A stretch of DNA of 64,000 nt from Escherichia coli (GCF_009931435.1 NZ_CP043415.1); one strand, 5' to 3'; counted from the stretch's first letter, positions 22,930 through 44,409 are shown. A program made the numbers and translations. The notes: a model not told the origin generated them from the letters alone.

Positions 22930-23260
22930 AAACAAACAATATATTTTCGTGCTCTCTATTCTGCACCTTATGACGAATCACCATTAGATTCATCATACTA
23001 AAATCACGATTCACTATACGAATCAGCAATCATCAAATGACGAATCTAATATAGATTCACGCGCCAAGTAAATAGATGTTTTCAAAAAAAATAGTCATTA
23101 CTGAATCATTGACAATTCGTGATAGATTCACTATCGAATCTATCACGAATCTCTGCAATATAATTCAAAATTATATAATATAAATATAGTTCATTAATTA
23201 CATGATTTAAAACACAAATCAGCAAAAACTTGTTTTTGCGTGGGGTGTGGTGCTTTTGGT
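22930..23260. other. oriT: oriT: origin of transfer with TraM/TraY/IHF binding region and F-type nic site (~23248/23249)
   Basis: Contains TTTGCGTGGGGTGT|GGTGCTTTTGGTGGTGAGAACCACCAACC, the F oriT nick-region sequence; AT-rich repeats toward traM. Confidence 0.85.
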
Positions 23261-23339: not shown

Positions 23340-23849
23340 ATGAAAAAGTGGATGTTAGCCATCTGCCTGATGTTTATAAATGAGATCTGCCAGGCCACTG
23401 ATTGCTTTGATCTTGCAGGCCGGGATTACAAAATAGATCCTGATTTACTGAGAGCAATATCATGGAAAGAATCCCGTTACCGGGTTAATGCCATCGGTAT
23501 TAATCCGGTAACGGGATATGGCAGCGGACTGATGCAGGTAGATTCCCAGCATTTTAACGAACTGGCCCGCTACGGAATTAAGCCAGAACATCTGACAACA
23601 GATCCCTGCATGAACATTTATACCGGTGCTTATTATCTGGCAATAGCATTTAAAAAATGGGGCGTCTCCTGGGAGGCCGTTGGTGCATACAATGCCGGAT
23701 TCAGGAAGACCGAACGCCAGAACCAGAGACGTCTTGCCTACGCATCAGATGTTTACCGGATTTATACCGGGATAAAAAGCAGTAAAGGTATCCGGATTCC
23801 GGCCACGAAGAAATCACTTCCGGAAATTAACAGCGTGCAGAACAATTAA
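23340..23849 (+). CDS. Gene X / orf169-type lytic transglycosylase
   Basis: Start set at [19 protein letters not shown] (signal peptide); 169 aa; first gene on the leading side of oriT as in F/R1. Confidence 0.88.
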
Positions 23850-24094
23850 TCTTACAGACATTGTCAGATACCTGTTATGCCGCAAAAGCGGCATGGAAGG
23901 CCACACACAAAAATATCATATGAGTGACAATACTGACTGGCCGAAGCCCCGCGAAGCGGGAACCCATCTTATATATACCCGGTAACTGCGCAGCCTCCTG
24001 CCAGACCATTTTTCGCGGGCACAATATTTACAGACAACCGGAAAGCCAGTTGATGAAATTGAGGTATATCAGACGACACAGCGATGCCGAAGAA

Positions 24095-24147
24095 TGATAA
24101 TATAAGTAAAGCCCCGAAAAATTTTCGGGGCTTTACTTATATTATCA
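24095..24147. terminator. 53-bp perfect palindrome, likely bidirectional rho-independent terminator
   Basis: TGATAATATAAGTAAAGCCCCGAAAA/ATTTTCGGGGCTTTACTTATATTATCA, a GC stem flanked by A/T runs on both strands, between convergent genes. Confidence 0.6.
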
Positions 24148-24357
24148 TGACTTCCACTTTCTGAACTGTTCGGCAATCACCCATAACGCCTTGTTGATTC
24201 TTATATCACCATCAATACCTGTAATGACTCTTGTCCTGGTATTTTTCCCGGAGGCACTTCGCCCAGATAATCCACCTTTTATCATATTCTCCTGAACCCG
24301 CTGCCAGGTTGTCCAGAGATCGTTCTGTTTATCCTCCCGACGACGGGGAGTAATTAT

Positions 24358-25047
24358 TTATTCAGGCGTCACTGGCGTTTTATTTTCATCTTCATACCTG
24401 ACCATCAGTGCAGCTCTGCCAAATAAATGTTGCTCGTCACTGTTAAGATGAATTTCTTTCATTGCCTCCATATTATCAGTGACCTTATCAAAGACACCGA
24501 GTACTTCATACGCACCCTCGATAACCTGCCCGACAATATCACCTTTATGTGGAACGCGGATTTCGCCAAAATTATTTCCGCACACCAGGCCATTTGTGCA
24601 GACAAAACGAAAAATTCCGGGGTTCATCTGATAACTGGATGAACCATCATGTGAATTAAGCAGGATAATTTCAGGAACTTCCTGCCCGTTAATATGCCCT
24701 TCCCTGCGAAGACGTAACATATGTTTACTGTATTCGCGACGTCCCAAATCACGAACCCGACTCTGACAGGCAAAGAATGGCTGGAAACCTTCATCACGTA
24801 ACTTATTGATGATATTGATTGTTGGAATATACGTATAACGTTCACTCCGGGACTCATGTTTATCACCGGAAAATACCGAAGGCACGAACTGCATTAATTC
24901 ATCATCCGTTAAAGGACGTTCACGGCGGATGGAATTATACCGACCAAAACGGGAAGCTAATCGCATAACAGCTACTCCTTTATGAAAGAATAAATTTAAT
25001 AAAAAATTTTTCCGCTTAATATCATCCCTCCCGATCTCCATTAACAA
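24358..25047 (-). CDS. Conserved leading-region protein of unknown function (possibly DUF932-like); start uncertain
   Basis: 229-aa ORF, first sizeable gene downstream of repeat copy A. Family name is from memory, unverified. Confidence 0.5.
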   Translation of the reverse strand: MLMEIGRDDIKRKNFLLNLFFHKGVAVMRLASRFGRYNSIRRERPLTDDELMQFVPSVFSGDKHESRSERYTYIPTINIINKLRDEGFQPFFACQSRVRDLGRREYSKHMLRLRREGHINGQEVPEIILLNSHDGSSSYQMNPGIFRFVCTNGLVCGNNFGEIRVPHKGDIVGQVIEGAYEVLGVFDKVTDNMEAMKEIHLNSDEQHLFGRAALMVRYEDENKTPVTPE

Positions 25048-25085: not shown

Positions 25086-25373
25086 TCAGCAGATAGCCCG
25101 GATATCGAGGCCGGCACGCTTAATCTGACGCAGGAACTGTTTGAAGTGATCGGCTTCCGCAATGTTGATATGGCGGAACTGCGTATCCACACCCCGGCTG
25201 AGCGCGTAGCTATAGCTGAAGGCCATCTTTTCCGGGTGGCTTTTGCGATATTTTTTCAGCTCAGTCAGGCTGCTGAATTCCAGGACGTCCCACTCTTCCC
25301 CGGTGTTTTTTTTCTTCCCGGCAACAAGAAGCGTGTACGACGCGGTGTTAACGTGGATATTTCGGGTACTCAT
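25086..25373 (-). CDS. Hypothetical small leading-region protein
   Basis: 95-aa ORF immediately downstream of repeat copy A, co-oriented with the leading-region genes. Confidence 0.45.
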   Translation of the reverse strand: MSTRNIHVNTASYTLLVAGKKKNTGEEWDVLEFSSLTELKKYRKSHPEKMAFSYSYALSRGVDTQFRHINIAEADHFKQFLRQIKRAGLDIRAIC

Positions 25374-25384
25374 CCTGCTTTCTC

Positions 25385-26005
25385 CTCTCTCTGGTTTTCA
25401 GCCCCCATCATCTGTTGAGTTTCGGGAGCCGCGGTTTTGACGTTTTGCGGGGACCTGCCTTTTGTTCCCTCCGGTATTCACCATCACCTGTTTGAGAACC
25501 TTCGCCGCAAGGGGCATCACTGCCACGGCCGGAAACGACTGTCCGGGGGCAGACCGCAAAAGTTTTTGCCTGCTTTTGGGCAAAAACTTTTGCGGGATGT
25601 GCATTTCACCCCTGGACTGGCGGAGACGGTTGTGGCTGTCTTTGCCCCCGGCGACAGGGGCTTAAACAGGTGAATGGCACCGGACACAACAACGGGCAGG
25701 GACCCGCCGCAACGACGTGAAGCGCGGTTTGCGAAACGGAGTTGCCCCTTACATCCCGGCGGTCTTTTGCCGGGATGTAAGGAGCGCAGGCCACGGCGCG
25801 ACCGGAACGGTCGCTGCAAGCCCGGGGTTTTCACGCATCGGACCGTAGCGACAGCCCGAAACCGCGCCAGCGGGTTTGGCGGAGACTGACAGGTGCGCCA
25901 GCAGCTGCCTGTCGGAGTCGGGCCTGACGACCGGATGCCGCCAGGCAGCCGGGAGCCGAAGGTGCGCCCGGCAGACAGGACAACACTGCAGTAGTCAGAA
26001 TCAGA
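25385..26005 (-). repeat. Leading-region repeat copy A (Frpo/ssi-like structured element)
   Basis: Near-identical to 32760-33408 and related to 36112-36600; internal hairpins GCAAAAGTTTTTGCC..GGCAAAAACTTTTGC, CATCCCGGC..GCCGGGATG, GCGACCG..CGGTCGC. Confidence 0.7.
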
Positions 26006-26280
26006 GCAGGAAGAAAAAGAGAATAATCACAGGGAAGGTGATGTGATTTCTGACAGGCCATAACCAGAGAAGGCGGGGGAAAAGAACGGGCGCCGCAGGC
26101 GCACGTTCATCCCCGTTCCTGAAGGGAAACGACCTTCCTGAAGTCAGGTTGTTCATGCCCGTACAACATCAGCAAGGAGAAAGGGGCTACCGGCGAACCA
26201 GCAGCCCCTTTATAAAGGCGCTTCAGTAGTCAGACCAGCATCAGTCCTGAAAAGGCGGGCCTGCGCCCGCCTCCAGGTTG

Positions 26281-26439
26281 CTACTTACCGGATTCGTAAG
26301 CCATGAAAGCCGCCACCTCCCTGTGTCCGTCTCTGTAACGAATCTCGCACAGCGATTTTCGTGTCAGATAAGTGAATATCAACAGTGTGAGACACACGAT
26401 CAACACACACCAGACAAGGGAACTTCGTGGTAGTTTCAT
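26281..26439 (-). CDS. hok: Hok-family toxin (flmA/hok), 52 aa
   Basis: Reverse-complement translates to [52 protein letters not shown]; below the 60-aa cutoff of the ORF track. Confidence 0.9.
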
Positions 26440-26497
26440 GGCCTTCTTCTCCTTGCGCAAAGCGCGGTAAGAGGCTATCCTGATGTGGACTAGACAT
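26285..26497 (-). CDS. mok: Mok (modulation of killing) overlapping reading frame
   Basis: 70-aa ORF overlapping hok in another frame, as in hok/mok/sok loci. Confidence 0.65.
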
Positions 26498-26535
26498 AGG
26501 GATGCCTCGTGGTGGTTAATGAAAATTAACTTACT
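26465..26535 (+). ncRNA. sok: Sok-like antisense RNA (approximate placement)
   Basis: Placed by the known architecture of hok/sok loci, antisense to the mok start region; not verified by structure. Confidence 0.35.
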
Positions 26536-26718
26536 ACGGGGCTATCTTCTTTCTGCCACACAACACGGCAACAAACCACCTTCACGTCATGAGGCAGAAA
26601 GCCTCAAGCGCCGGGCACATCATAGCCCATATACCTGCACGCTGACCACACTCACTTTCCCTGAAAATAATCCACTCATTCAGACCGTTCACGGGAAATC
26701 CGTGTGATTGTTGCCGCA

Positions 26719-27438
26719 TCACGCTGCCTCCCGGAGTTTGTTCGGCACCATCCACCGCTCCATCTCACGAACAGCATGACCGACCACCCTTGCCGCCATA
26801 CCAGCCTCTGCGATGACCTGCCAGAATGGCATATCCTGCCACTGCCAGCGTTCCATTCCGGCCAGTGACGGAAAACGCTCGCCCCACTGCCAGAACAGGG
26901 TTTCCAGGTCATGCTCTGCCACCCGGTCACTCCAGCGTGCATGCCAGCTTCCGACTGTTTCCGGCGAATGGAATGCCAGTTCGATTTCAGCCTGAGCGAC
27001 CAGCGCCTGGTACGCACGGGCTTTCTGCTCTGCCTCCCTCGCCTGCTGGCGGCTGTACTTCTGCATGACCAGCGCGGATTTATGGCGACTGCGTTCCCTG
27101 ACACGAAACCGCACCGACGGGAACAAGCGCTCTGCTGCATCACCGGGAAGGGGAAGGAGGCAGACCTCGCCCTGTGTTTCAATCAGCACATCGATGGCAT
27201 ACAGCCACTGAAGACGGTTGCCGTGCAGTTCTTCTGCGGTCAGGGACGGCATGAAAAATCGCAGGTCAGACAGCGATATCCTGCGGCTTCCGTTCAGACA
27301 GCGGAAAAACGCCCCCGCATACGGATATTCAGCCAGCGTGTTACCCTGATGGCGGCGTTTTTCGGTCTCCGCCACCGCCCGCCATGCGGCCTGTTGCTCT
27401 GTGCTGAGAGGAACCAGTGCCTGTGAACGTGCGCTCAT
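26719..27438 (-). CDS. psiA: PsiA, plasmid SOS inhibition protein A
   Basis: 239 aa, [78 protein letters not shown]...; start overlaps the psiB stop. Confidence 0.93.
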
Positions 27439-27869
27439 GCCTGACCTCCTTCCGCCATCAGGATATGGATGATGTCACTGACGCTGTACCCCTGCGCGTC
27501 CAGTGACGCCGCCAGTGCCAGTGAATGGCTGACGGCTTCCGGTGCAAACCGCCGCTGTACCTGAACCACCGCAAACGGCTCACCACCGGCATTCACCAGA
27601 ACCAGCACCCAGACCTGAGAGACATCGCCCGGTGAACATAACGCCAGGTGGAAACGTTCGTGGGCAGGCGTGAAACGGACCTGGACGGGGAAAAATCCGC
27701 CAAACTCGCTGCCGTACTCGCCGTTCATCGTCCAGTTGTCCGGCGCATCCAGTTCCCGCATCACGGCGTGTGTCAGCTCACGACGTTCATCACTTCCGGC
27801 TGCCCGGATATCTTCATATTCCTGTGCGCTCATGGTCTGTAATACATTCAGGGTCAGTTCAGTTTTCAT
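27435..27869 (-). CDS. psiB: PsiB, plasmid SOS inhibition protein B (RecA inhibitor)
   Basis: 144 aa from [66 protein letters not shown]..., recognisable as F PsiB. Confidence 0.95.
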
Positions 27870-27923
27870 CACGGTATCTCCCTTGCTGCCGCCCCGTCTC
27901 CGGCGGGGCGGTGTGGTTGTTTA

Positions 27924-31844
<3,921 letters not shown>

Positions 31845-31906
31845 TAGTACCTCCCAAAACGGTAATAATGATTGTCTGCCGGACGTGTCCCCGTCCGGCA
31901 CCTCTC

Positions 31907-32742
<836 letters not shown>

Positions 32743-32759: not shown

Positions 32760-33408
32760 TGATGTTTTCAGCCCCCATCATCTTTTGAGTTTCGGGAGCC
32801 GCGGTTTTGACGTTTTGCGGGGACCTGCCTTTTGTTCCCTCCGGTATTCACCATCACCTTTTTGAGAACCTTCGCCGCAAGGGGCATCACTGCCACGGAC
32901 GGAAACGACTGTCCGGGGGCAGACCGCAAAAGTTTTTGCCTGCTTTTGGGCAAAAACTTTTGCGGGATGTGCATTTCACCCCTGGACTGGCGGAGACGGT
33001 TGTGGCTGTCTTTGCCCCCGGCGACAGGGGCTTAAACAGGTGAATGGCACCGGACAGAACAACGGGCAGGGACCCGCCGCAACGACGTGAAGCGCGGTTT
33101 GCGAAACGGCGTTGCCCCTTACATCCCGGCGGCCTTTTGCCGGGATGCCAGGAGCGCAGGCCACGGCGCGACAGAGGCGGCGCGACCGGAACGGTCGCTG
33201 CAAGCCCGGGGTTTTCACGCATCGGACCGTAGCGACAGCCCGAAACCGCGCCAGCGGGTTCGGCGGAGACTGGCAGGTGCGCCAGCAGCTGCCTGTCGGA
33301 GTCGGGCCTGACGACCGGATGCCGCCAGGCAGCCGGGAGCCGAAGGTGCGCCCGGCAGACAGGACAACACTGCAGTAGTCAGAATCAGAGCAGCAGGAAA
33401 AAGAAGAA
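32760..33408 (-). repeat. Leading-region repeat copy B (Frpo/ssi-like), immediately upstream of ssb
   Basis: Near-identical to copy A over ~600 bp, with the same hairpins. Confidence 0.7.
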
Positions 33409-33462
33409 CAGTAGCAGTAGCAGTAGCAGTAGCAGTAGCAGTAGCAGTAGCAGTAGCAGTAG
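33409..33462. repeat. Hexanucleotide microsatellite (CAGTAG)x9
   Basis: Nine perfect tandem CAGTAG units, present only at the distal edge of repeat copy B; copy A has no expansion at the same place. Confidence 0.95.
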
Positions 33463-33626: not shown

Positions 33627-34190
33627 TCAGGCACGCAGACGAATAATCATCGTCGGGACATCGGTATAAGCAAACGTGCCGCGCGGCAGCTCCTCGCGGA
33701 CGTCAGAAAACGGTAACAGCTTCTCCTGCTGGCGTGGTCCGTTGAGACAGACGGCGACCAGCACGCCACCCGGACGCAACAGGGAAAAGGCCCGCAGGAT
33801 ATGCCGGATATCCTGCCCGTGGCTGAACGGCGGATTCATGATAACCCGGCTGTAATACTGCACTGGCTGCCATTCCATGAAGTCGCCACACTGAACCCTG
33901 ACACCGTTAAAATTTTCCCGCAGATACCGGACCAGCCCGCTGTTGATTTCCACCGCATCACACATGGCCCCCGGCGCGGTATCCCGAATCGCCCGCAGTA
34001 TGGCCCCGGTGCCGGCAGAGGGTTCCAGAATGTGATCACGGTTGCTGATCTCCGCCAGCATCACCAGGCGATCACAGACCGGGGCAGGAGTCACAAAAAG
34101 CTGAGATTCAGCCCGGATTTCAGCAACCGGCGCGGCGTTATCCAGCCTTGCGCGCATCAGCCGGATACGTTCTCTTAACTGACTGTGCAT
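33627..34190 (-). CDS. Putative SAM-dependent DNA adenine methyltransferase (small orphan MTase)
   Basis: 187 aa with motif I-like LEPSAGTGA and motif IV-like NPPF; no adjacent restriction gene. Confidence 0.65.
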   Translation of the reverse strand: MHSQLRERIRLMRARLDNAAPVAEIRAESQLFVTPAPVCDRLVMLAEISNRDHILEPSAGTGAILRAIRDTAPGAMCDAVEINSGLVRYLRENFNGVRVQCGDFMEWQPVQYYSRVIMNPPFSHGQDIRHILRAFSLLRPGGVLVAVCLNGPRQQEKLLPFSDVREELPRGTFAYTDVPTMIIRLRA

Positions 34191-34237
34191 ATCATTATCT
34201 CCGTCATCCCCCGGGGATTTTCCCGGGGGGATATACC

Positions 34238-35599
34238 TTATTTCTGTGGGATTTCCGTGATTTTCATGTCGGTGATATACACATTCACCAGGCGGAAATT
34301 ATTGTCCATTGTGCGGCGGTACCGGTATGCCCCGTGGTCTTCTGCTTCTGCCACACTGCGCACGGCCTTACAGTCCCGGGGCAGGGCGGCCCACTGTGCC
34401 TTTGTCATTTCCCGGAAACCTTCCCCCGGATAGTTGACTACCGGCGGACGCTTCGCGGCCTGACTGGCGACGGCAGCCTCTTCTGCCGATGGTGCTTTGT
34501 AGTCCGTGATGCGATCGGGCGTCACTTTCATCGTGCCGCTGTACCCGAGAAAACTGTAATTTGGCGTTGTGACTGAACTCACCGCCCCGTTGCTTTTGTT
34601 CACACGGATGATGGTCAGCCACTCGCCCCGGCTGAAAACCTGTCCGCCCGGCTCAAAATCCTGTGTCCGGGTAACCACGCCGCCGCTTTCGTCCAGCATG
34701 GCACGCTCATAGATCAGGCGGTTCTGATAGTGGTTAACCCAGCGTTGTTGATGCTGAATCTGCCGTTCATGACAGCGGATCGCAATTTCGCGGGCCTGCT
34801 CCGTGGTGATGATGTCATCATCCAGGGCCGACCATAACGATCGACTTCCTTCATACTGGCTTTTTTCTGCCGGGCGCGGATACGTATCCAGCGGGAAACA
34901 GGCGCTGATATGGTCATGACTGCTGATGAGTTTTGCCATATTCAGATCCAGCGATTCAGCCCGCCACATCGTCAGATATTTCTGCGACTGCGCGATGGTC
35001 TTTTCAGCCTTGCGCAAATCAGCTTCGATTTTTTTGATACGACGCCAGCGAACGTCCGGACGTTCTTTATACTTCGCGTGAAGCAGTGCCGACCGCGCCC
35101 GCTCTTCCCAGTATTCCGCACGTTCAAAGAGCATCACGGCTCGTTTCATGCCGTTTTCAATACGCTGCGCATCACGACGGGCGCGGCGTTCGCTGTGATG
35201 CCCCACAAGAATGGGCTGACCGGGCGGGATCATCGCGGCCAGTCTTTCCACTTCATCAAGTGCCTGTGCGGATTCACTGGCCCGCTTTCCGCTGTATCCG
35301 GTAAACCGCTCCGCCCGTGCTTCCTGACGTTCAGCGAGCGTGCTGTCTTCATCCTCAATCTCTCCGGCAAGTGAGAGGAGCACGTCTTCCCGGCCCGGTG
35401 TCCAGGCTGGCGCGACAAACAGCGCCTGTTTTGGTGCCCAGCGGAAACCGGCATCATGCACTTTTTTATACGTCTCCGGGTCAAGACGTGACACGGCATA
35501 CAGGCGCAGTTTGTTGTCATCCGGTGAGTAGGTCGCGCGGTACATCTGCACAGGGCTGGCGGCTTCCGGGGCGGTCATGGTGATTGCTGCTGATGTCAT
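34238..35599 (-). CDS. Conserved leading-region protein of unknown function, 453 aa
   Basis: Long charged ORF co-transcribed in orientation with the downstream MTase; no recognisable catalytic motif. Confidence 0.6.
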   Translation of the reverse strand: MTSAAITMTAPEAASPVQMYRATYSPDDNKLRLYAVSRLDPETYKKVHDAGFRWAPKQALFVAPAWTPGREDVLLSLAGEIEDEDSTLAERQEARAERFTGYSGKRASESAQALDEVERLAAMIPPGQPILVGHHSERRARRDAQRIENGMKRAVMLFERAEYWEERARSALLHAKYKERPDVRWRRIKKIEADLRKAEKTIAQSQKYLTMWRAESLDLNMAKLISSHDHISACFPLDTYPRPAEKSQYEGSRSLWSALDDDIITTEQAREIAIRCHERQIQHQQRWVNHYQNRLIYERAMLDESGGVVTRTQDFEPGGQVFSRGEWLTIIRVNKSNGAVSSVTTPNYSFLGYSGTMKVTPDRITDYKAPSAEEAAVASQAAKRPPVVNYPGEGFREMTKAQWAALPRDCKAVRSVAEAEDHGAYRYRRTMDNNFRLVNVYITDMKITEIPQK

Positions 35600-35650
35600 A
35601 AAATGTTCTCCTTCCGTCTGTTGCCGCCCCTCGCGGGGCGGCTCACCTCA

Positions 35651-35881
35651 TCAGTTAAAAGCGCGTTTCAGTTCGAGTGTGCGGAGCACCTGCCCGAAGG
35701 CCGTGTTTTTCATGGCGGGGATGTGTACACCACGCCCCCGGTGAAAACTCCGGGCAATGTGTCGCCCGAAGGCTTTCAGCACGGGGTCAATTTCCGGCGC
35801 GGGGATGTCTTCGCGTCTGAAACGGGGATGACGGCGGGGCTTTACAGCCGCTGCGGAAGGTGAAACAATACTTACTGTCAT
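35651..35881 (-). CDS. Hypothetical small protein
   Basis: 76-aa ORF, first ORF downstream of repeat copy C; weak support. Confidence 0.3.
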   Translation of the reverse strand: MTVSIVSPSAAAVKPRRHPRFRREDIPAPEIDPVLKAFGRHIARSFHRGRGVHIPAMKNTAFGQVLRTLELKRAFN

Positions 35882-36111
35882 AATTTAGCCTCTTATGACG
35901 TTAATTAATGAAACCGTAAAGACTGTTCGTGCAGTCTCTGCGGTGTGGATTAAGCAGGTCCCTGACCTGCTTTTTTCATATCTGCGTCTGACGTTCTCCG
36001 GTGTTTTCCTCCTTCTGTTCCTGCGTTCTCATTACCTGCCAGCCGGATGACTGACAGAACACATAAATGCGTATTGCCGGAGCCTGAAATAAATCCTGAT
36101 TTTTAAAGAAC

Positions 36112-36600
36112 ATCACCCGTTGAGTTTCGGGAGCCGCGGTTTTGACGTTTCGCGGGAACCTGCTGCTGTATTCCCTGTGGTATGAACTTCACCCGTTTGA
36201 GAACCTTCGCCGCAAGGGGCATCACTGCCACGGCCTGACGCACCTGTCCTGGGCAGAACGCAAAATTTTTTACCGGGTTTTGGGTAAAAAATTTTGTGGG
36301 CTGTTCATTTACCCTGGACAGTCAGTGCGGCAGGTTGTGGCTGTATGAGCCCCCGGCGACAGGGACTCATACGGGTGTGTGGCATCCGGCAGGCAATGAG
36401 CAGGGACCCGCCGCAATGACGGAGAGCGCGTGCGCGAAACGGCGTTGCGCCTCACATCCCGGCGGCCTTTTGCCGGGATGCCAGGAGCACAGGCCACGGC
36501 GCGACAAGGGTGGCGCGACCGTTCCGGTCGCTGCAAGCCCGGGGTTTTGCGGCGTCAGGGATGGAAGCCCGCCAGGGCGGAGACAGCTCCGCTGGCTCCG
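36112..36600 (-). repeat. Leading-region repeat copy C (diverged Frpo/ssi-like)
   Basis: Shares TTGAGTTTCGGGAGCCGCGGTTTTGACG, TTGAGAACCTTCGCCGCAAGGGGCATCACTGCCACGG and CCCGGCGGCCTTTTGCCGGGATGCCAGGAGC blocks with copies A and B. Confidence 0.65.
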
Positions 36601-37292: not shown

Positions 37293-37718
37293 TCAGTCCA
37301 GTGCCGCGTAAATCGCGTTACATTCGGGGTGAAATTCGATGTGGCTCCACAACTGCGCATCGCGCATCCGGTAAAGCTGGGTCAGTCCTGCATCCCCACT
37401 GTCGTGGTACAGCCACAACTGGCGGTTAATCACAAGGGAAGTCAGAATGATGCCTGCGGCATCGGCGCTGACCGTGCGGTCAAACCAGTTTTCACCGTTG
37501 ACCAGATGAAAACGGTCGCCATCCGGCATCATGTAACCGCCACCGTCCGGCAGGCGGATGAAGTGCCAGAATCCGCCTTCATATTCCGGCATCATTTTTT
37601 TCGCCAGCGCGTATACAGACGCTTCGGCATACAGAAAATCCAGGCCAAACAGGTAAGGCAGAAAAGACAGACGGTCGCACTCTTCAACGTTCAGAGTGAC
37701 AGGTTTCGCATACTGCAT
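37293..37718 (-). CDS. klcA: KlcA/ArdB-family antirestriction protein
   Basis: 141 aa, typical family length, with an [13 protein letters not shown]-type motif; leading-region location. Confidence 0.75.
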
Positions 37719-38131
37719 GATGTTTTCCTCCGTTGTTCACATATTCCGCGACACCGGGCGGTGCCGTGCCTCCATAAAAGCCGGGCGATAAGGCGGGGAT
37801 GCACAGGGCGCAAGGGAAGCCGCAGCCTGACGCACACGGCTGACGGGAGTTGGAGGGTGAGACAGCGAAATCTGAGCGGGTGAACGACCGGAAAATCACG
37901 GCAGACGGGAAGGAGGGACCGGGTGACCGCAGCGGCGAAGCGTACCCTTGCATCCCTGCCAGCCCGGCTAAGATGGAGGCACGGCACAGCCCGCACACGA
38001 CACGGCGGCCACATAACTGAAAATCCACAAGGCCATGCCCCGCATGGCTGGGTAAAGCGGAGCCGCCGGCGACTTCCTTTGTGCTCTGTCCGGGGACCGG
38101 CAGGAAAAAGGCGGGGATTTCCCCGCCATCA

Positions 38132-39616: not shown

Positions 39617-40300
39617 TTACGCAGCCTCCGGCATAAACCAGTCATCATTCGCGGCCCCCTGCTGCATGGCCCGTTGCACGGCGGAAAGGCGTTGCTGCCC
39701 GGCACGGTGATACTGCTCAAGCAGCTCGATACCGATATACCGGCGTCCGGACTGGAGGGCGGCGACGCAGGTTGAGCCGCTGCCTGCAAACGGGTCCAGC
39801 ACAATTGCGTTCGGGTGTGTGAAGCTCTCAATCAGCGGTTGCAGGCTGGTAACGGGCTTTTCCGTCGGGTGATGGCGATTGCCCGAATATTTCCAGCCCA
39901 GCACGTCCGGCAGCGGGTTTTGTGGCAGACGTGGACGGCCTTTTGCCAGGATGTAGGCGCATTCGTGGCGATAGCCCACATATGCGGCCTTCGATGTGTA
40001 GTTTTTGGTGAAGACCAGGTGACCAACCACGCTGAATCCCGCATTTTTCCAGGCGGCCACAAAGCGATCGACGCGGTTCCAGCCATAGAAGCTGACCATC
40101 AGCGCATCTTTTTTGAGTACGCGGTACATTTCATTACAGGCCGGTTGCAGCCATTCATCGGTTTTATCGCCAGCGATGGTGCGCCCGGAACGGTCACGGA
40201 AACCGACGAGGTACGGCGGGTCGGTGAGGATGAAATCAATGGCGTTATCAGGGATACGGGCTATAACATCGATGCAGTTACCGAGGACAAAACGGGACAT
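39617..40300 (-). CDS. Orphan DNA methyltransferase (beta-class N6-adenine/N4-cytosine MTase)
   Basis: 227 aa; DPPY motif near the N-terminus and DPFAGSGST (SAM-binding) near the C-terminus; no cognate endonuclease nearby. Confidence 0.85.
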   Translation of the reverse strand: MSRFVLGNCIDVIARIPDNAIDFILTDPPYLVGFRDRSGRTIAGDKTDEWLQPACNEMYRVLKKDALMVSFYGWNRVDRFVAAWKNAGFSVVGHLVFTKNYTSKAAYVGYRHECAYILAKGRPRLPQNPLPDVLGWKYSGNRHHPTEKPVTSLQPLIESFTHPNAIVLDPFAGSGSTCVAALQSGRRYIGIELLEQYHRAGQQRLSAVQRAMQQGAANDDWFMPEAA

Positions 40301-40683
40301 ACAAAACGCCTTCTCTTACAGAGGGCACCGGGAGGGCACCCCTGTGGTGCCCGTTCCCCGCTGCCTGTGGGCTGTTCACCGCGTCCGGTAACGGGTCAGG
40401 CCGACCGTGGAATACCGCAGCCGTCGTCTGTTTGACGGCAAGGTTATGCCGCGAAAGCGGCTTGAAGGGCGTTCATCAGAAAAGGGCGACAGGCTGGCGT
40501 ACACTGTCACCGACGCCAGCCGGGAGCGGTAAAAGCGCCCGTCCCGTGCCCGCCGGACGCGGGACACTGACCACAGGCAGCGTTTATGCCGCGCCGCGTC
40601 AGCCGGCGCAGTAAAAAGAGGAGCATGGCGACATCCTTTACCGGAAAAGAAACGGGCAGTTGCCCGCCCGTCTCCGTCATACT

Positions 40684-41586
40684 TCATCCACCGTAATGCG
40701 CCACCTTGTCGACTATCCACGCAGGTCCGGTGACTTCCGGCAGCTCATCGTCATCTGTCGGGGAAGACCATTCCAGTTCCCCCCACAGCACATCAACAAG
40801 CTCTCCACGCTCATATCGCTGCCAGCCACAGAAATTGCAGCCCTGTTCGGCGTACCAGTGCTCCAGCGTGCAGCCGAAACGGCGGCTTAATTCTGCAACA
40901 ACGTCGCTTTCCGGCTGACACCACGGCGTGTCGAAATCCACCTGAATGAAGTTTTCCCCCTGACTGCTGATATTCAGGTCATACCCACAAGGCCACTTCA
41001 CGCCATACCGTTCTGTATACCAGTGATATGCAGAAGGAACACCGTTCAGAACACCACCGTTAAAGCCATTCACTTCAACATCCAGGCGGGTCGGCAGAAC
41101 CGTCAGCAGGTCAAACGGCATGGTTTTTTCCGGCACTACGTTGTCACACAGACGGTTCCACCACACCGATACATCCTCGTTACCCCAGATGTCACACCAG
41201 TCACCTCTTTTTGCGGTGAAATGCACAGTGATGGTTTCCCTGACATCATCCGGTAACCCTTCCCAGCGACGCTGTCCAGTACCGCTCTGCAGCCAGAGTT
41301 CATGCAGCATCAGGCAGTTTTGCTCATCCAGCAGTACACCGTTCTGCAGGTGTGTCAGCCAGCGGGTGAACGCGATATTTTCCGTCGATACAGCACCACG
41401 TCCGGCAGCCGTCACTCCGGGGCACTGCTCAGAGCGGATATTTTCAGTGATCTGCAGAAGTCCGGCACTTCCGGCCAGAAACAGCTGAATACCTTCATTT
41501 GTGGCGCGGCGATAAAACGGTGTGACTGCACCGCTGGCCCGTCGTTTAATCTCAGCAATCTGTGCCGGTTCACCAGAAAAATGCAT
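40684..41586 (-). CDS. Conserved leading-region protein of unknown function, 300 aa, Cys/Trp-rich
   Basis: ORF whose ATG (41584-41586) lies a few nt from the group II intron 3' end; no assigned function. Confidence 0.55.
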   Translation of the reverse strand: MHFSGEPAQIAEIKRRASGAVTPFYRRATNEGIQLFLAGSAGLLQITENIRSEQCPGVTAAGRGAVSTENIAFTRWLTHLQNGVLLDEQNCLMLHELWLQSGTGQRRWEGLPDDVRETITVHFTAKRGDWCDIWGNEDVSVWWNRLCDNVVPEKTMPFDLLTVLPTRLDVEVNGFNGGVLNGVPSAYHWYTERYGVKWPCGYDLNISSQGENFIQVDFDTPWCQPESDVVAELSRRFGCTLEHWYAEQGCNFCGWQRYERGELVDVLWGELEWSSPTDDDELPEVTGPAWIVDKVAHYGG

Positions 41587-41594
41587 ACGATCGG

Positions 41595-43995
41595 GTAGCA
41601 GTGATGCATTACTGCATCACCGCCCCCTAAGAACCGTACGTGCCAGTTTCCCGGCATACGGCTCAAGCCTTTCTAAGCCCACTCTCATGAGCCGGTTTCA
41701 CTACATGTATACCTTTCGCATGAACAAGTGTGTGACACATCGGATGCAGCATAATCAAATTGGAGAGGCAGTTGCTCCCTCCATCGACTCGCCGTATGAT
41801 GTGATGAACCTGCCACTGGGAATCAGATGTAATCCTCTCATCACATATGGGGCATCGGCCCCGCTGCTCAAACCAGATTTGAATGAGCTTTTTCCGTCCT
41901 TGCAGTTTGTGCCGCATTTTGTCTGCACAACGCTCCTCAAAGTACATCTCCCATTGAGGATCGAACGGATTAGCTGCAATTTTAATCGGTTTAAACCGGT
42001 TGATAGGCGTATCGATTGCTTTCCTCAGATTTGCATACTGAGGCTTACCGTTGGCAAGGAGTTCTCCGGTAGCCGTGGAGAAAGACCAGTTTCGGGCACC
42101 TTGTTGATGGAAATATCTTTTCCGAATCCACTTCTTTCCCTTATTGGGATGACGCCGAACAGCCCAACGCCATAAAGCCAGCCAGATCTCATTGTCAACT
42201 TTGTTAAATGCGACCTTGGCCACAATGTGTTGATGGTAAGCCGCCCACCCTTTGATCATTGGGTTCAGCATGCGGATCAACGTAAGCTGATCCATAGCTT
42301 TGTTGCCTTTGATTACAGCGCGTATTTTCTTTAAAAAGGAACTGACATTGGCTTTAGAGGGTTTGATCAGCATCTTACCGCCATATTTGCGAATGTTCTG
42401 TCCAAGAAAATCAAATCCTTCCTCGATATGTGTGATTTTCGTCTTTTCCGGAGAAAGCATTAATCCTCTTTCAGCCATAAACCGCCTGACGACGGGTAAT
42501 ACCTGAGACTCAAGAAGTTCTTTTGACTCTCCAGTGATAATAAAATCATCAGCATATCTCACATAGTTAACTTTCGGGTTAACCAATCGTCCCTTGACTG
42601 TTCTCTTTTTAAACTCCGAAGCAAGAAGCGCCTCCAGTCCATCCAGAGCAATGTTAGCCAGTACAGGAGAAATTATTCCCCCCTGAGGAGTTCCTGAATT
42701 TACAGGGAATAACTGCCCCTTTTCCCTGTAACCCGCTTTAAGCCACTTTGTCAGGATTTGTCTGTCTGTTGAGGTGTTATCGATTAGCCATTGATGAGAT
42801 ATATTGTCAAAGCATCCCCGTATATCCCCCTCAAGCACCCATTCAGCGGATGTTTTCTGCGCAAGAACACAGAAGCACTGTGCTATCGCATCTGCAGTAG
42901 ACCTTCCAGTCCGAAAGCCGAAGGATCTCTGGTCAGCAGTGACTTCAGCAACGGGCTCAAGAGCCAGCAAATACAACGCCTGCATCGCCCGATCCTTCAT
43001 AGTGGGTATCCCAAGGGGACGAGACTTCCCATTTGACTTAGGTATATAAACCCGCTTAAGTGGCTGTGGTTTGTAACCACGCCGTTTCAGCAGGTTAATA
43101 GCAAGAAATTTAACCTCCGGGGAAGACCATGTCTGACCATCAACCCCAGGAGTACGTTTCCCGCTATTCTCTGTAACTCGTCTGACAGCAACTGCTCTGC
43201 CACTAAACGAGTGAGTCAGTATCCATTGCAAGGATTTGACCTTGCCATGTTTACCTTCTCGTGTTGCCTTTACGATACGCGCTTGCAGTCTCCGCACTTC
43301 CCGATAGCACTGACGCCAGTTGATACTGTGCCAGGAGTCACCGTTAAGTAAGGACGCACCTTTACAGGTTGTAGCCTGCTCAGTCATCTGCTTTTCCTTT
43401 CTGGAAGATTACTCAAACTCTCTCGTAATGAAAGACCCAGTGGAAGTCTGCCCGCTTTCGCGTAGGGTAATGTTGCCGGGCTCAACCCTTATCCGGTCCA
43501 TTACAGACTGGCATTCGCTTTTTCCACCTTCTTTTACCCGCACCGCCAACAGTATCCCTTGCGGTTAACCTGCCTCACGAGGCAGCGATACGGGCTTACC
43601 ATGTTCCACCTGAATAACAACAGTAGGTTAGACTCTGCTCACAACACCGGTGGTTTATTGTCCGTGTACCCCTAGCAAACAGAGGAGTAACCAACCACAT
43701 ACCTTTTGGTTCAAGCCTGTCAGCATCTTTGGCTTGTTCTGGTTAACGACGCTTCAGCAGTTCACATATGTTAGTCATGCTACCGAGCCTAGACCTCCTC
43801 CGCCTGATGCTGGCAGATTACATGTAACCTCACGGTTTCATGCGATCCGAAGATCCGGTTTCATTGTCCTGACAGCTTCACACCCCACCGTTACCAGTGA
43901 CGCATGTGTCAGTAGGCTACTGATGACGGAACATCAGGTTCCCTGACGGAATCGAACTCCGCTGGAACAATTATTCAGGCGACTTCATGTCGCAC
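41595..43995 (-). mobile_element. Group II intron (~2.4 kb) with intron-encoded RT-maturase-HNH protein
   Basis: Minus-strand 5' end GTGCGACATG at 43995; domain V GAGCCGTATGCCGGGAAACTGGCACGTACGGTTC at 41664-41631 overlapping the ORF stop; domain VI-like hairpin follows. 3' boundary approximate. Confidence 0.8.
41663..43387 (-). CDS. Group II intron-encoded protein (reverse transcriptase / maturase / HNH endonuclease)
   Basis: 574 aa; RT motif YVRYADDFII, maturase X region, C-terminal HNH block (CPICDERI…HHIIRRVDGGSNCLSNLIMLHPMCHTLVH). Confidence 0.92.
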   Translation of the reverse strand: MTEQATTCKGASLLNGDSWHSINWRQCYREVRRLQARIVKATREGKHGKVKSLQWILTHSFSGRAVAVRRVTENSGKRTPGVDGQTWSSPEVKFLAINLLKRRGYKPQPLKRVYIPKSNGKSRPLGIPTMKDRAMQALYLLALEPVAEVTADQRSFGFRTGRSTADAIAQCFCVLAQKTSAEWVLEGDIRGCFDNISHQWLIDNTSTDRQILTKWLKAGYREKGQLFPVNSGTPQGGIISPVLANIALDGLEALLASEFKKRTVKGRLVNPKVNYVRYADDFIITGESKELLESQVLPVVRRFMAERGLMLSPEKTKITHIEEGFDFLGQNIRKYGGKMLIKPSKANVSSFLKKIRAVIKGNKAMDQLTLIRMLNPMIKGWAAYHQHIVAKVAFNKVDNEIWLALWRWAVRRHPNKGKKWIRKRYFHQQGARNWSFSTATGELLANGKPQYANLRKAIDTPINRFKPIKIAANPFDPQWEMYFEERCADKMRHKLQGRKKLIQIWFEQRGRCPICDERITSDSQWQVHHIIRRVDGGSNCLSNLIMLHPMCHTLVHAKGIHVVKPAHESGLRKA

Positions 43996-44409
43996 ATTTG
44001 AGCACCAGTTTGGCATGGGAATTCTCCTCTCACATGCGGCCTCCACCAGGCCGTGCCGCACCTGTAACCGGGCGACCGCATACGAATGCAGGTGCGGCCC
44101 CGAAGCCGCAGCGCGTGGAGGAGGAACGACGAAACGTGACCGGGTGAGGAGGCCGGCGACAGCGACACACTTGCATCGGATGCAGCCCGGTTAACGTGCC
44201 GGCACGGCCTGGGTAACCAGGTATTTTGTCCACAGAACCGTGCACAAAATGCTGTGGATAAGCTGGACACAGCCGTCCACAGCAGGCATACAGCCACACC
44301 CTCAGAGAATTGAGCGTTTTTTAGTCACAATAATGACATTTGACTGTGTGTGGATTCAGTTATTAGAATACTGTATATGCATACAGCAAAAGAAAAGGGA
44401 GATGAGAAC

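Follow-up and report, generated by a model that had tools for sequence, protein, structure and literature searches.

Three leading-region repeats of an F-like Escherichia coli plasmid as likely class 1 single-stranded DNA promoters of the Frpo/ssiD family

Three repeats in the leading region of an F-like plasmid of Escherichia coli are, with high confidence, class 1 single-stranded DNA (ssDNA) promoters of the Frpo/ssiD/ssp1 family that work by the mechanism proposed below. The window analysed, a stretch of 64,000 nucleotides (GCF_009931435.1 NZ_CP043415.1), is an F-like (IncF) plasmid. The homology of the repeats, their strand and position, the hairpin which they form, the covariation of its base pairs and its strand asymmetry are all observed in this analysis. 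In vitro work on Frpo reportedly dates to 1997, and work on ssDNA promoters in vivo belongs to the years 2023-2026, with surveys that count about 13,000 homologues. ssDNA promoters account for the way in which conjugative plasmids, only minutes after they enter, express anti-restriction genes and those for SOS inhibitors, SSB and methyltransferases, and are central to plasmid establishment and the spread of resistance, a significance which is already recognised.

Identity and orientation of the three repeats

The repeats, of which the first two were delimited as whole units by repeat finder and BLAST, are the following.

25394-26020, + strand: copy 1, whole unit, Frpo1-type core with the type A distal module upstream of it
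32764-33408, + strand: copy 2, whole unit, Frpo1-type core with type A distal module, upstream of ssb
36111-36548, + strand: copy 3, Frpo2-type core, with a type B distal module that runs on to about 36620

The repeat finder returns three families of direct repeats, namely 25394-25693 with 32764-33063 (99%) and 36099-36398 (67% ungapped), 25794-26020 with 33178-33404 (98%), and 25731-25845 with 33101-33215 and 36434-36548. Together these reproduce the three structured repeats of the original prediction and show its coordinates to be good to about 10-20 nt. Gapped BLAST aligns copy 1 with copy 2 at 96% over 626 nt with a single indel of 14 nt, and copy 3 with copies 1 and 2 at 79-82% over 444 nt (36111-36548), in keeping with the earlier description of the first two as near-identical and of the third as diverged. 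The published promoter hairpin of 328 nt is only the gene-proximal 320-350 nt of this repeat of 0.5-0.65 kb.

The transferred strand can be read from the origin of transfer, the core of which is matched exactly.

23243-23256, + strand: oriT nick-site core, GGGTGT followed directly by GGTGCTTT

The nick we take to fall between these two blocks, as in F oriT. There, the nicked strand is the one that is transferred, in the 5' to 3' direction. Since the motif lies on the + strand, the + strand is the transferred (T) strand which enters 5' to 3' towards higher coordinates. It enters first, and the leading-region genes of the - strand use it as their template. The leading genes are all on the - strand, and the repeat copies lie 2.1-13 kb past the nick motif on the same strand as the motif; in the F locus the nick motif is on the opposite strand and the leading genes are on the + strand. 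The traJ 5'UTR/FinP is found at about 22.3 kb and sok at 26437-26613 (Rfam), and the region from 24 to 38 kb matches thousands of F-like plasmids. In a 99%-identical relative the order from low to high coordinates is traA-traY-traJ-traM, a gene with an SLT domain, and then a run on the - strand that comprises an unnamed gene, hok, psiA, psiB, a ParB-like gene, DUF905, ssb, a class I methyltransferase, DUF3560, an unnamed gene, DUF1380, an antirestriction gene and others. A different single-strand initiation (ssi) element of F, ssiE, is also present at 23844-24032 (97%).

The reference ssi sequences are those of Samuel et al. (2024, Supplementary file 4), which include F ssiD (D90178), an element that has been equated with Frpo (PMC7736820). 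Over its full length of 351 nt, ssiD matches the + strand at 96.6% in copy 1 (25402-25751) and at 96.9% in copy 2 (32772-33121), and it matches copy 3 in the + orientation at 77.5% (36122-36452). Copies 1 and 2 are 94-98% identical to the F region upstream of ygeA (Frpo1), and copy 3 is 91% identical over 510 nt to the F region upstream of ssbF (Frpo2). Masai and Arai are said to have named the Frpo element in 1997. All three copies are thus homologous to a characterised member of the family (ssiD or F Frpo2); they lie in the leading region with the transferred strand as the active strand, form a long imperfect stem-loop of about 328 nt as ssDNA, and stand directly upstream of co-oriented genes that are templated by the T strand. 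That the repeats correspond to Frpo or ssi elements had been proposed in the original prediction, and the ssiD matches, the + strand, the position past the nick and the co-orientation of the genes all back this proposal.

The Frpo1 element of F (equivalent to ssiD and ssp1a, upstream of ygeA/ygeB) has the same hairpin and strand as copies 1 and 2, and copy 1 also has the same genes downstream, orf95 and a DUF932 gene. It differs in that the Frpo1-type core occurs twice in the window, the second time before ssb, in that the window copies carry a compensatory base-pair change in the apical stem, and in the sequence upstream of the core, which in the window is the type A module; the DUF932 gene of the window is moreover truncated in comparison with F ygeB. 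Frpo2 of F (ssp1b) has its apex, upper 3' arm and type B distal module in common with copy 3 (95-100%), but it precedes ssbF whereas copy 3 precedes a module of orf76, DUF3560 and methyltransferase genes. The IncI1 plasmid ColIb-P9 likewise has three dispersed leading-region copies, ssi1, ssi2 and ssi3, each of which heads an operon and forms the same overall long hairpin. However, only the apical 80-118 nt can be aligned (75-80%), the basal two-thirds of the stem being unalignable in sequence, and the genes downstream are different (ardA and others). A CAT(C/T)T bulge, a CCC(C)TGGAC block and a stability advantage of the T strand are common to ColIb-P9 ssi1-3 and the window copies. The ssi sites of the primosome or primase type (PriA n'-pas, G4) are short clusters of hairpins of about 70-130 nt that require PriA or DnaG and are independent of RNA polymerase; a comparison with these is made unnecessary by the sequence identity of the repeats to the RNA polymerase-dependent ssiD.

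The class 2 (ssp2, 'Frpo3') and class 3 (ssp3) elements of F and pESBL follow the same principle of a long T-strand hairpin before a leading-region operon but are without sequence homology to the three repeats. A class 2 region is located at 37719-38131 (97% to F) and a class 3 region at 40306-41166 (95% to F); the window carries three class 1 ssDNA promoters, one of class 2, and probably one of class 3. A second role, that of a roadblock to strand conversion, has been reported for the class 2 element.

At least 5000 PLSDB records contain the core hairpin, in at least 14,901 places; a record has about three of them on average, and among the records listed the number goes up to eight. Samuel et al. 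count 13,089 homologues of Frpo, spread over 6,006 elements, and according to another study 74% of PsiB plasmids have Frpo. pKP1034 and the closest relative show the same layout of three modules. With thousands of plasmids carrying the core, the element is one already known and its three-copy layout is ordinary for this plasmid lineage.

Hairpin structure and selection on one strand

Each copy, taken as ssDNA, folds into an imperfect hairpin of about 320 nt, the parts of which are located as follows.

25419-25737, + strand: long imperfect hairpin of copy 1, the Frpo/class 1 promoter proper, with its apical loop at 25571-25578
32789-33107, + strand: long hairpin of copy 2, with a minimum free energy (MFE) of -103.0 kcal/mol against -94.5 kcal/mol for the complement
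36124-36440, + strand: long hairpin of copy 3 in the consensus structure, with an MFE core at 36159-36404
25554-25595, + strand: perfect 17-bp A+T-rich apical stem-loop, in which 25554-25570 pairs with 25579-25595
25598-25609, + strand: conserved unpaired bulge of the 3' arm, GTGCATTTCA, with the core CATTT at 25602-25606

The pair of sequences that had been quoted as an example of hairpin potential, GCAAAAGTTTTTGCC and GGCAAAAACTTTTGC, is real and forms the apex, a perfect stem of 17 bp, of a hairpin that is much longer. The strong hairpin potential attributed to the repeats likewise survives folding as ssDNA and lies far beyond chance (z = -8.8 to -13.7), with values of -177.9 kcal/mol (z = -13.7) for the whole repeat of copy 1 (25385-26005), -105.4 kcal/mol (z = -10.75) for its core and -147 kcal/mol (z = -8.8) for copy 3. 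A sliding fold was run over the whole + strand with DNA parameters, in 300-nt windows with a step of 30 nt and a threshold of -75 kcal/mol, homology-independent hairpin mining at this value being the method of Wen et al. (PMC12672017). Over the 64 kb of the + strand the background has a mean of -42.6 and a standard deviation of 11.8 kcal/mol; five loci in all pass the threshold, and the three copies are the three lowest of all loci (-96.5, -92.7 and -92.0 kcal/mol). Relative to F ssiD, the compensatory change in the apical helix is one of G-C versus C-G, and double changes occur in four of its pairs. In the insect-metagenome homologues the A+T-rich apical stem is swapped for a short G+C stem. 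In the MFE structure of each of the three copies the bulge of the 3' arm stays unpaired, and its CATTT is kept in ten of the 11 aligned relatives.

The alignment of these 11 F-like relatives consists of the three window copies, Frpo1 and Frpo2 of F and two pKP1034 copies, the rest being a Salmonella plasmid and candidates from Serratia and insect metagenomes. It yields a consensus structure of 92 pairs in which 96.2% of the cells are paired, compared with 40-48% when the partners are slid by 1-3 columns. Compensatory double changes are seen in 16 pairs as opposed to 3-5 in the slid controls, and none of 500 column shuffles reaches the observed values. Several G-T wobbles are conserved, as is the unpaired CATTT bulge of the 3' arm. 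As G-T wobbles turn into C-A mismatches on the complement, a strand-specific element is expected to fold better in its active strand. The fold of the T strand is more stable than that of the complement by 6-17 kcal/mol in 11 of 11 class 1 elements, including ColIb ssi1-3.

Promoter geometry, proposed mechanism and priming

A linear consensus scan of both strands of copies 1 and 3 finds no conventional sigma-70 promoter (0 sites), a result which fits an element that is no duplex promoter and which also means that its boxes are non-canonical. When both arms of 14 family members are scanned with PWMs, the candidates for boxes are weak, and the best of them are not shared between the F-like elements and ColIb. 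The stems themselves contain weak conserved candidates and no canonical -35/-10 pair, and the stem-borne promoter geometry rests on homology and analogy since no box pair reaches the conventional consensus. Couturier 2023, Samuel 2024, Wen 2025, Fraikin 2026 and several reviews give the -35, -10 and +1 positions in figures only. The candidates in the window are the following.

25613-25618, + strand: candidate -35, TGGACT, in the 3' (presumed non-template) arm of copy 1
25637-25642, + strand: candidate -10 region, TGTCTT, in a mismatch-rich internal loop of copy 1, of low confidence
32983-32988 and 33007-33012, + strand: candidate -35 and candidate -10 region of copy 2
36315-36320 and 36342-36347, + strand: candidate -35, TGGACA, and candidate -10 region, TGTATG, of copy 3

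TGGAC[T/A/G] is the best conserved -35-like hexamer across the family (F-like elements and ColIb ssi1-3) and is present in every relative; TGGACT comes directly after the CATTT bulge and 'ACCC', a position equivalent to that which the -35, TTGCAT, occupies in the window's class 2 element. TGTCTT lies opposite the ATCACT of the 5' arm, 18 nt past the candidate -35, and is a poor match to the consensus. The best guess by analogy, with chances that approach even without exceeding them, is a TGGAC(T/A) -35 combined with a -10 in the loop and a start near 25649-25652 on the non-template arm. Weak alternative candidates, with their places in copy 1, are TTG(C/T)GG by the A+T-rich apex (TTGCGG at 25590-25595), TTGTGG-17-GACAGG (25630-25635 and 25653-25658), and at the foot of the 5' arm TTGACG (25437-25442). 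Copies 1 and 2 and Frpo1 of F agree in every candidate hexamer, so that whichever box is correct in F is retained here.

RNA that is made on the + strand heads toward lower coordinates, which leaves two possible orientations. In the favoured one the 3' arm is the non-template strand and transcription proceeds from the apex to the base; in the less favoured one the 5' arm is non-template and transcription proceeds from the base to the apex and then through the loop and down the other arm. A clear promoter is seen in the 3' arm of the window's class 2 element (TTGCAT-15-TAAGAT, 37948-37974). Its -10 starts in a mismatch, and this calibrates the orientation of class 1 as apex to base. The same orientation is favoured because the functional Frpo2-acrIIA4 construct of Samuel et al. 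contains the apical two-thirds of the hairpin only, and because the apical region is the only part that is conserved between F and ColIb. The top linear PWM match, TTGACG-17-TTTTGT at the base of the 5' arm, offers a good -35 only, is absent from ColIb and would be unpaired in the Frpo2-acrIIA4 construct, and is therefore ranked below the geometries of the 3' arm. A -10 within the CATTT bulge was also rejected, as the insect homologues, which are without the A+T-rich apex, have no -35 upstream of the bulge.

It is proposed that during conjugation the + strand of the window would enter the recipient 5' to 3' from the oriT nick at about 23.25 kb, and that some 320 nt of each arriving repeat would snap back into a long imperfect hairpin. 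This hairpin would serve as a duplex promoter for the host sigma-70 RNA polymerase, with the 3' arm as the non-template and the 5' arm as the template strand, and transcription would run from the apex side through the base into the downstream genes, for which the entering strand would be the template. The outcome may be an early burst of expression of orf95/ygeB, ssb-psiB-psiA and orf76/DUF3560/methyltransferase before a complementary strand exists. The same transcripts could prime synthesis of the complementary strand, and once the DNA has become double-stranded the hairpin would be gone and the promoter off.

The dependence on RNA polymerase, the early expression and the priming would extend to the window copies by analogy with the published, 97%-identical F elements. 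Frpo is described as a 328-nt stem-loop with -35 and -10 boxes that are recognised by RNA polymerase, and its transcripts also prime DNA synthesis. Transcription from a single strand by sigma-70 RNA polymerase (with SSB) is published for F Frpo and for ColIb ssi3, as is the inactivity of these elements in duplex form, and SSB is needed in vitro. Deletion of Frpo1 or Frpo2 of F abolishes early expression of the genes downstream in transconjugants, and class 1 promoters show the highest early transcription, with starts that have been mapped by 5' RACE.

The elements might act mainly as single-strand initiation sites that supply primers made by RNA polymerase, gene expression being secondary, a reading on which the balance is even. 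It draws on the original isolation of ssiD, which was as a single-strand initiation signal, on the priming of DNA synthesis by Frpo transcripts in vitro, on the rifampicin-sensitive early strand conversion that a 2026 preprint reports in vivo downstream of ssp1a and ssp1b, and on the three dispersed copies, which would provide three priming points over the first 13 kb to enter. Priming is, however, not exclusive with a promoter role because the same transcript does both, and each copy fronts a co-oriented operon with a Shine-Dalgarno-like sequence, the ATG being 46-48 nt away in copies 1 and 2. Protein expression is moreover lost when the F elements are deleted.

Downstream genes, distal modules and recombination

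The genes which the three ssDNA promoters would serve are listed below.

25086-25373, - strand: orf95, homologue of F ygeA (288 nt in F), first gene after copy 1
24145-24966, - strand: DUF932 gene, homologue of F ygeB, which comes second in group 1 and has a premature stop as its codon 203
26719-32741, - strand: group 2 after copy 2, made up of ssb, DUF905, a ParB-like gene, psiB and psiA
32202-32741, - strand: ssb (SSB, 375 bits)
27435-27872, - strand: psiB (PsiB, 277 bits)
26719-27438, - strand: psiA
28709-30658: IS21-family element that splits the ParB-like gene (IS21 transposase, 322 bits)
33627-35881, - strand: group 3 after copy 3, made up of orf76, DUF3560 and methyltransferase genes, a module absent from F
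35651-35881, - strand: orf76
34238-35599, - strand: DUF3560 protein of 453 aa
33627-34190, - strand: class I SAM methyltransferase

The gene groups named in the original prediction are all present on the - strand, with two corrections. The DUF932 gene carries a premature stop (its protein is 98% identical to the F protein over 273 aa), and the run from ssb to psiA is split by the IS21-family element, an insertion which may have taken psiB and psiA of this plasmid out of the reach of copy 2. The claim that each copy lies immediately 5' of its co-oriented group holds for copies 1 and 2, where a Shine-Dalgarno-like sequence precedes the operon and the ATG of orf95 and of ssb is 46 and 48 nt from the base of the hairpin respectively. 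It does not hold for copy 3, from which orf76 is about 240 nt away, and an annotated antisense RNA, AS-pc01 (Rfam), is located in between at 35876-35975. F has no counterpart of the orf76/DUF3560/methyltransferase module between 'antirestriction/DUF1380' and ssb, and no published test of a class 1 promoter before this module was found.

Beyond the promoter hairpin, the repeats contain two further parts.

25747-25782, + strand: perfect 14-bp hairpin, upstream of the Frpo hairpin in terms of transcription, a conserved part of the repeat
25831-26020, + strand: distal type A module, in copies 1 and 2 only and outside F ssiD

The 14-bp hairpin is kept in copies 2 and 3 and in F, and a similar CCTTACAC hairpin is found in ColIb ssi1-3. 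Of the distal module there are two versions that are unrelated to each other: copies 1 and 2 have type A, and copy 3 and both F copies have type B. The type A region has a column identity of 35-45% with Frpo1 and Frpo2 of F, its equivalent in copy 2 folds with z = -4.5, and it occurs in at least 5000 plasmid records. It is conceivable, though on balance doubtful, that the distal modules and the 14-bp hairpin form a second functional part, for example an ssDNA insulator or a pause site for strand synthesis, and that the repeats serve in addition as recombination scaffolds by which plasmids exchange entire cassettes of early-expressed operons. In that case F would have lost its orf76/DUF3560/methyltransferase cassette through Frpo x Frpo recombination, with a chimeric and less well paired Frpo2 as the remnant.

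Recombination between copies is suggested by the mosaic make-up of Frpo2 of F. The flank next to ssb and the lower 5' arm resemble copy 2 (98-100%) and the apex and upper 3' arm resemble copy 3 (95-100%), and these are followed by another copy-2-like patch and a copy-3-like distal end. The fold of the chimera is the less stable one (-87 versus -99 to -106 kcal/mol). Together with the missing module, the mosaic is what recombination or gene conversion between two Frpo elements would leave. In the pKP1034 copies an apex of copy-3 type sits within a base of copy-1 type; as the apex is contiguous, a conversion tract across it would swap both arms at once and keep the pairing. In the IncI plasmid pO26-CRL125, three imperfect Frpo repeats, R1-R3, flank leading-region modules, and in a relative one module is missing and a single hybrid Frpo repeat is in its place (PMC3817090). 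The pattern is the same as for Frpo2 of F versus copies 2 and 3, although the plasmid family (IncI) and the module are different. Frpo2 of F is also a parallel to a concern voiced by Couturier et al. The chimera is a small evolutionary footnote, in that the repeats mediate gain and loss of early-gene modules.

Such mosaic copies (F Frpo2, pKP1034), along with the documented loss and gain of modules between Frpo repeats in an IncI plasmid (PMC3817090), could also be taken to mean that the repeats are passive products of duplication and recombination, a 'portable homology' whose foldability is a by-product of G+C-rich inverted repeats. This is very unlikely and already largely refuted. Compensatory changes preserve the pairing, every family member has a strand-specific stability advantage with bulges and G-T wobbles conserved, and loss-of-function data exist in F, so that recombination appears as a consequence of repetition and not as an alternative function. 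Equally unlikely is the idea that the hairpins do their work in duplex DNA, whether as cruciforms, as sites for protein binding or as transcription terminators that insulate neighbouring operons. It would suit their location between operons and the additional hairpins of the distal modules, but copy 1 has a single weak terminator-like site and copy 3 has none, which is not above shuffled sequence, and from the mismatches, the bulges and the asymmetry between strands it would seem that selection acts on one single strand instead of a symmetric duplex. The intrinsic terminator or insulator, defined by a G+C-rich stem and a T-tract, was rejected as a candidate for the repeats.

Least probable of all is that the repeat encodes a structured RNA or a small protein, the 68-aa ORF named 'single-stranded DNA-binding protein' in several GenBank records: relatives do attach this name to the ORFs at 25398-25604 and 32768-32974 (- strand), but the product is a low-complexity basic peptide with no NCBIfam match, the ORF sits within the hairpin's 5' arm and apex, copy 3 is without an ORF of at least 50 aa at the corresponding position, and none of the copies has an Rfam family that attains its gathering score. 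The ORFs of 68 aa annotated as 'SSB' inside the repeats in relatives are probably spurious. The value for annotation lies in labelling the three intergenic repeats as Frpo/class 1 ssDNA promoters.

Class 2 and probable class 3 ssDNA promoter regions

37719-38131 (+), class 2 ssDNA promoter (ssp2, 'Frpo3') homologue
40291-40690 (+), probable class 3 (ssp3) ssDNA promoter, a T-strand hairpin locus

The region at 37719-38131 (+) is homologous to the published class 2 ssDNA promoter, sharing 96.9% identity with the F region and 82% with Frpo'4 (Samuel et al. 2024), and it lies upstream of an antirestriction (ArdB/KlcA-like) gene (37293-37718). The T-strand of this region folds with -104.6 kcal/mol compared with -94.9 kcal/mol for its complement, and it harbours a clear, stem-borne TTGCAT-15-TAAGAT promoter at 37948-37974.

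The locus at 40291-40690 (+) is probably the published class 3 promoter. It reaches -91.7 kcal/mol per 300 nt, which ranks it fourth among the T-strand hairpin loci of the window, it is located directly upstream of a DNA methylase gene (39617-40300), and the surrounding stretch (40306-41166) is 95% identical to F. Its stability shows no asymmetry between the T-strand and complement folds, and a search of the locus for clear promoter boxes found none.

A reading frame within the Frpo hairpin

25398-25604 and 32768-32974 (-), 68-aa ORF, located in the Frpo hairpin, across its 5' arm and apex

Several GenBank records name this ORF 'single-stranded DNA-binding protein', and the annotation recurs in two related sequences, L001 (4400-4606 and 9811-10017) and L004 (11994-12122). 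Its product is a basic low-complexity peptide which matches no NCBIfam model, and copy 3 of the Frpo repeat has no counterpart of the ORF. The name is probably a spurious annotation that has spread between records.

Insertions and other elements of the leading region

28709-30658, IS21-family element, istA 28795-29817 (+) and istB 29814-30596 (+)
24145-24966 (-), DUF932 gene, F ygeB homologue (98% identity over 273 aa)
35876-35975 (+), Rfam AS-pc01 ('antisense to pHK01_035'), 98.9 bits
41590-43938 (-), group II intron, Rfam domains 41590-41666 and 43792-43938, 574-aa ORF 41663-43387

The IS21-family element, with an 8-bp overlap/target duplication, splits a ParB-like gene (-) into fragments at 27924-28742 and 30606-31901. 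Since ssb lies on one side of the element and psiB and psiA on the other, early transcription from copy 2 of these two SOS-inhibitor genes may be blocked. At its distal end (33385-33450, +), copy 2 continues into a short array of tandem GCAGTA/GTAGCA hexamers, which copy 1 lacks. AS-pc01 sits between the orf76 start and copy 3, runs antisense to the orf76 transcript at its 5' end, and could modulate the copy-3-driven module after the plasmid becomes double-stranded. The group II intron has inserted into the distal part of the leading region and adjoins the fifth locus past the -75 kcal/mol hairpin threshold (44011-44310, +; -76.6 kcal/mol).

Codon 203 of the DUF932 gene is a premature stop, and a 99%-identical relative lists no gene at this position; ygeA and ygeB of F, downstream of Frpo1, are reported to be important for transfer efficiency. 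Between the DUF932 gene and the oriT-adjoining SLT-domain gene lies a 97% match (23844-24032, +) to ssiE of F (D90180), which is a further signal for single-strand initiation.
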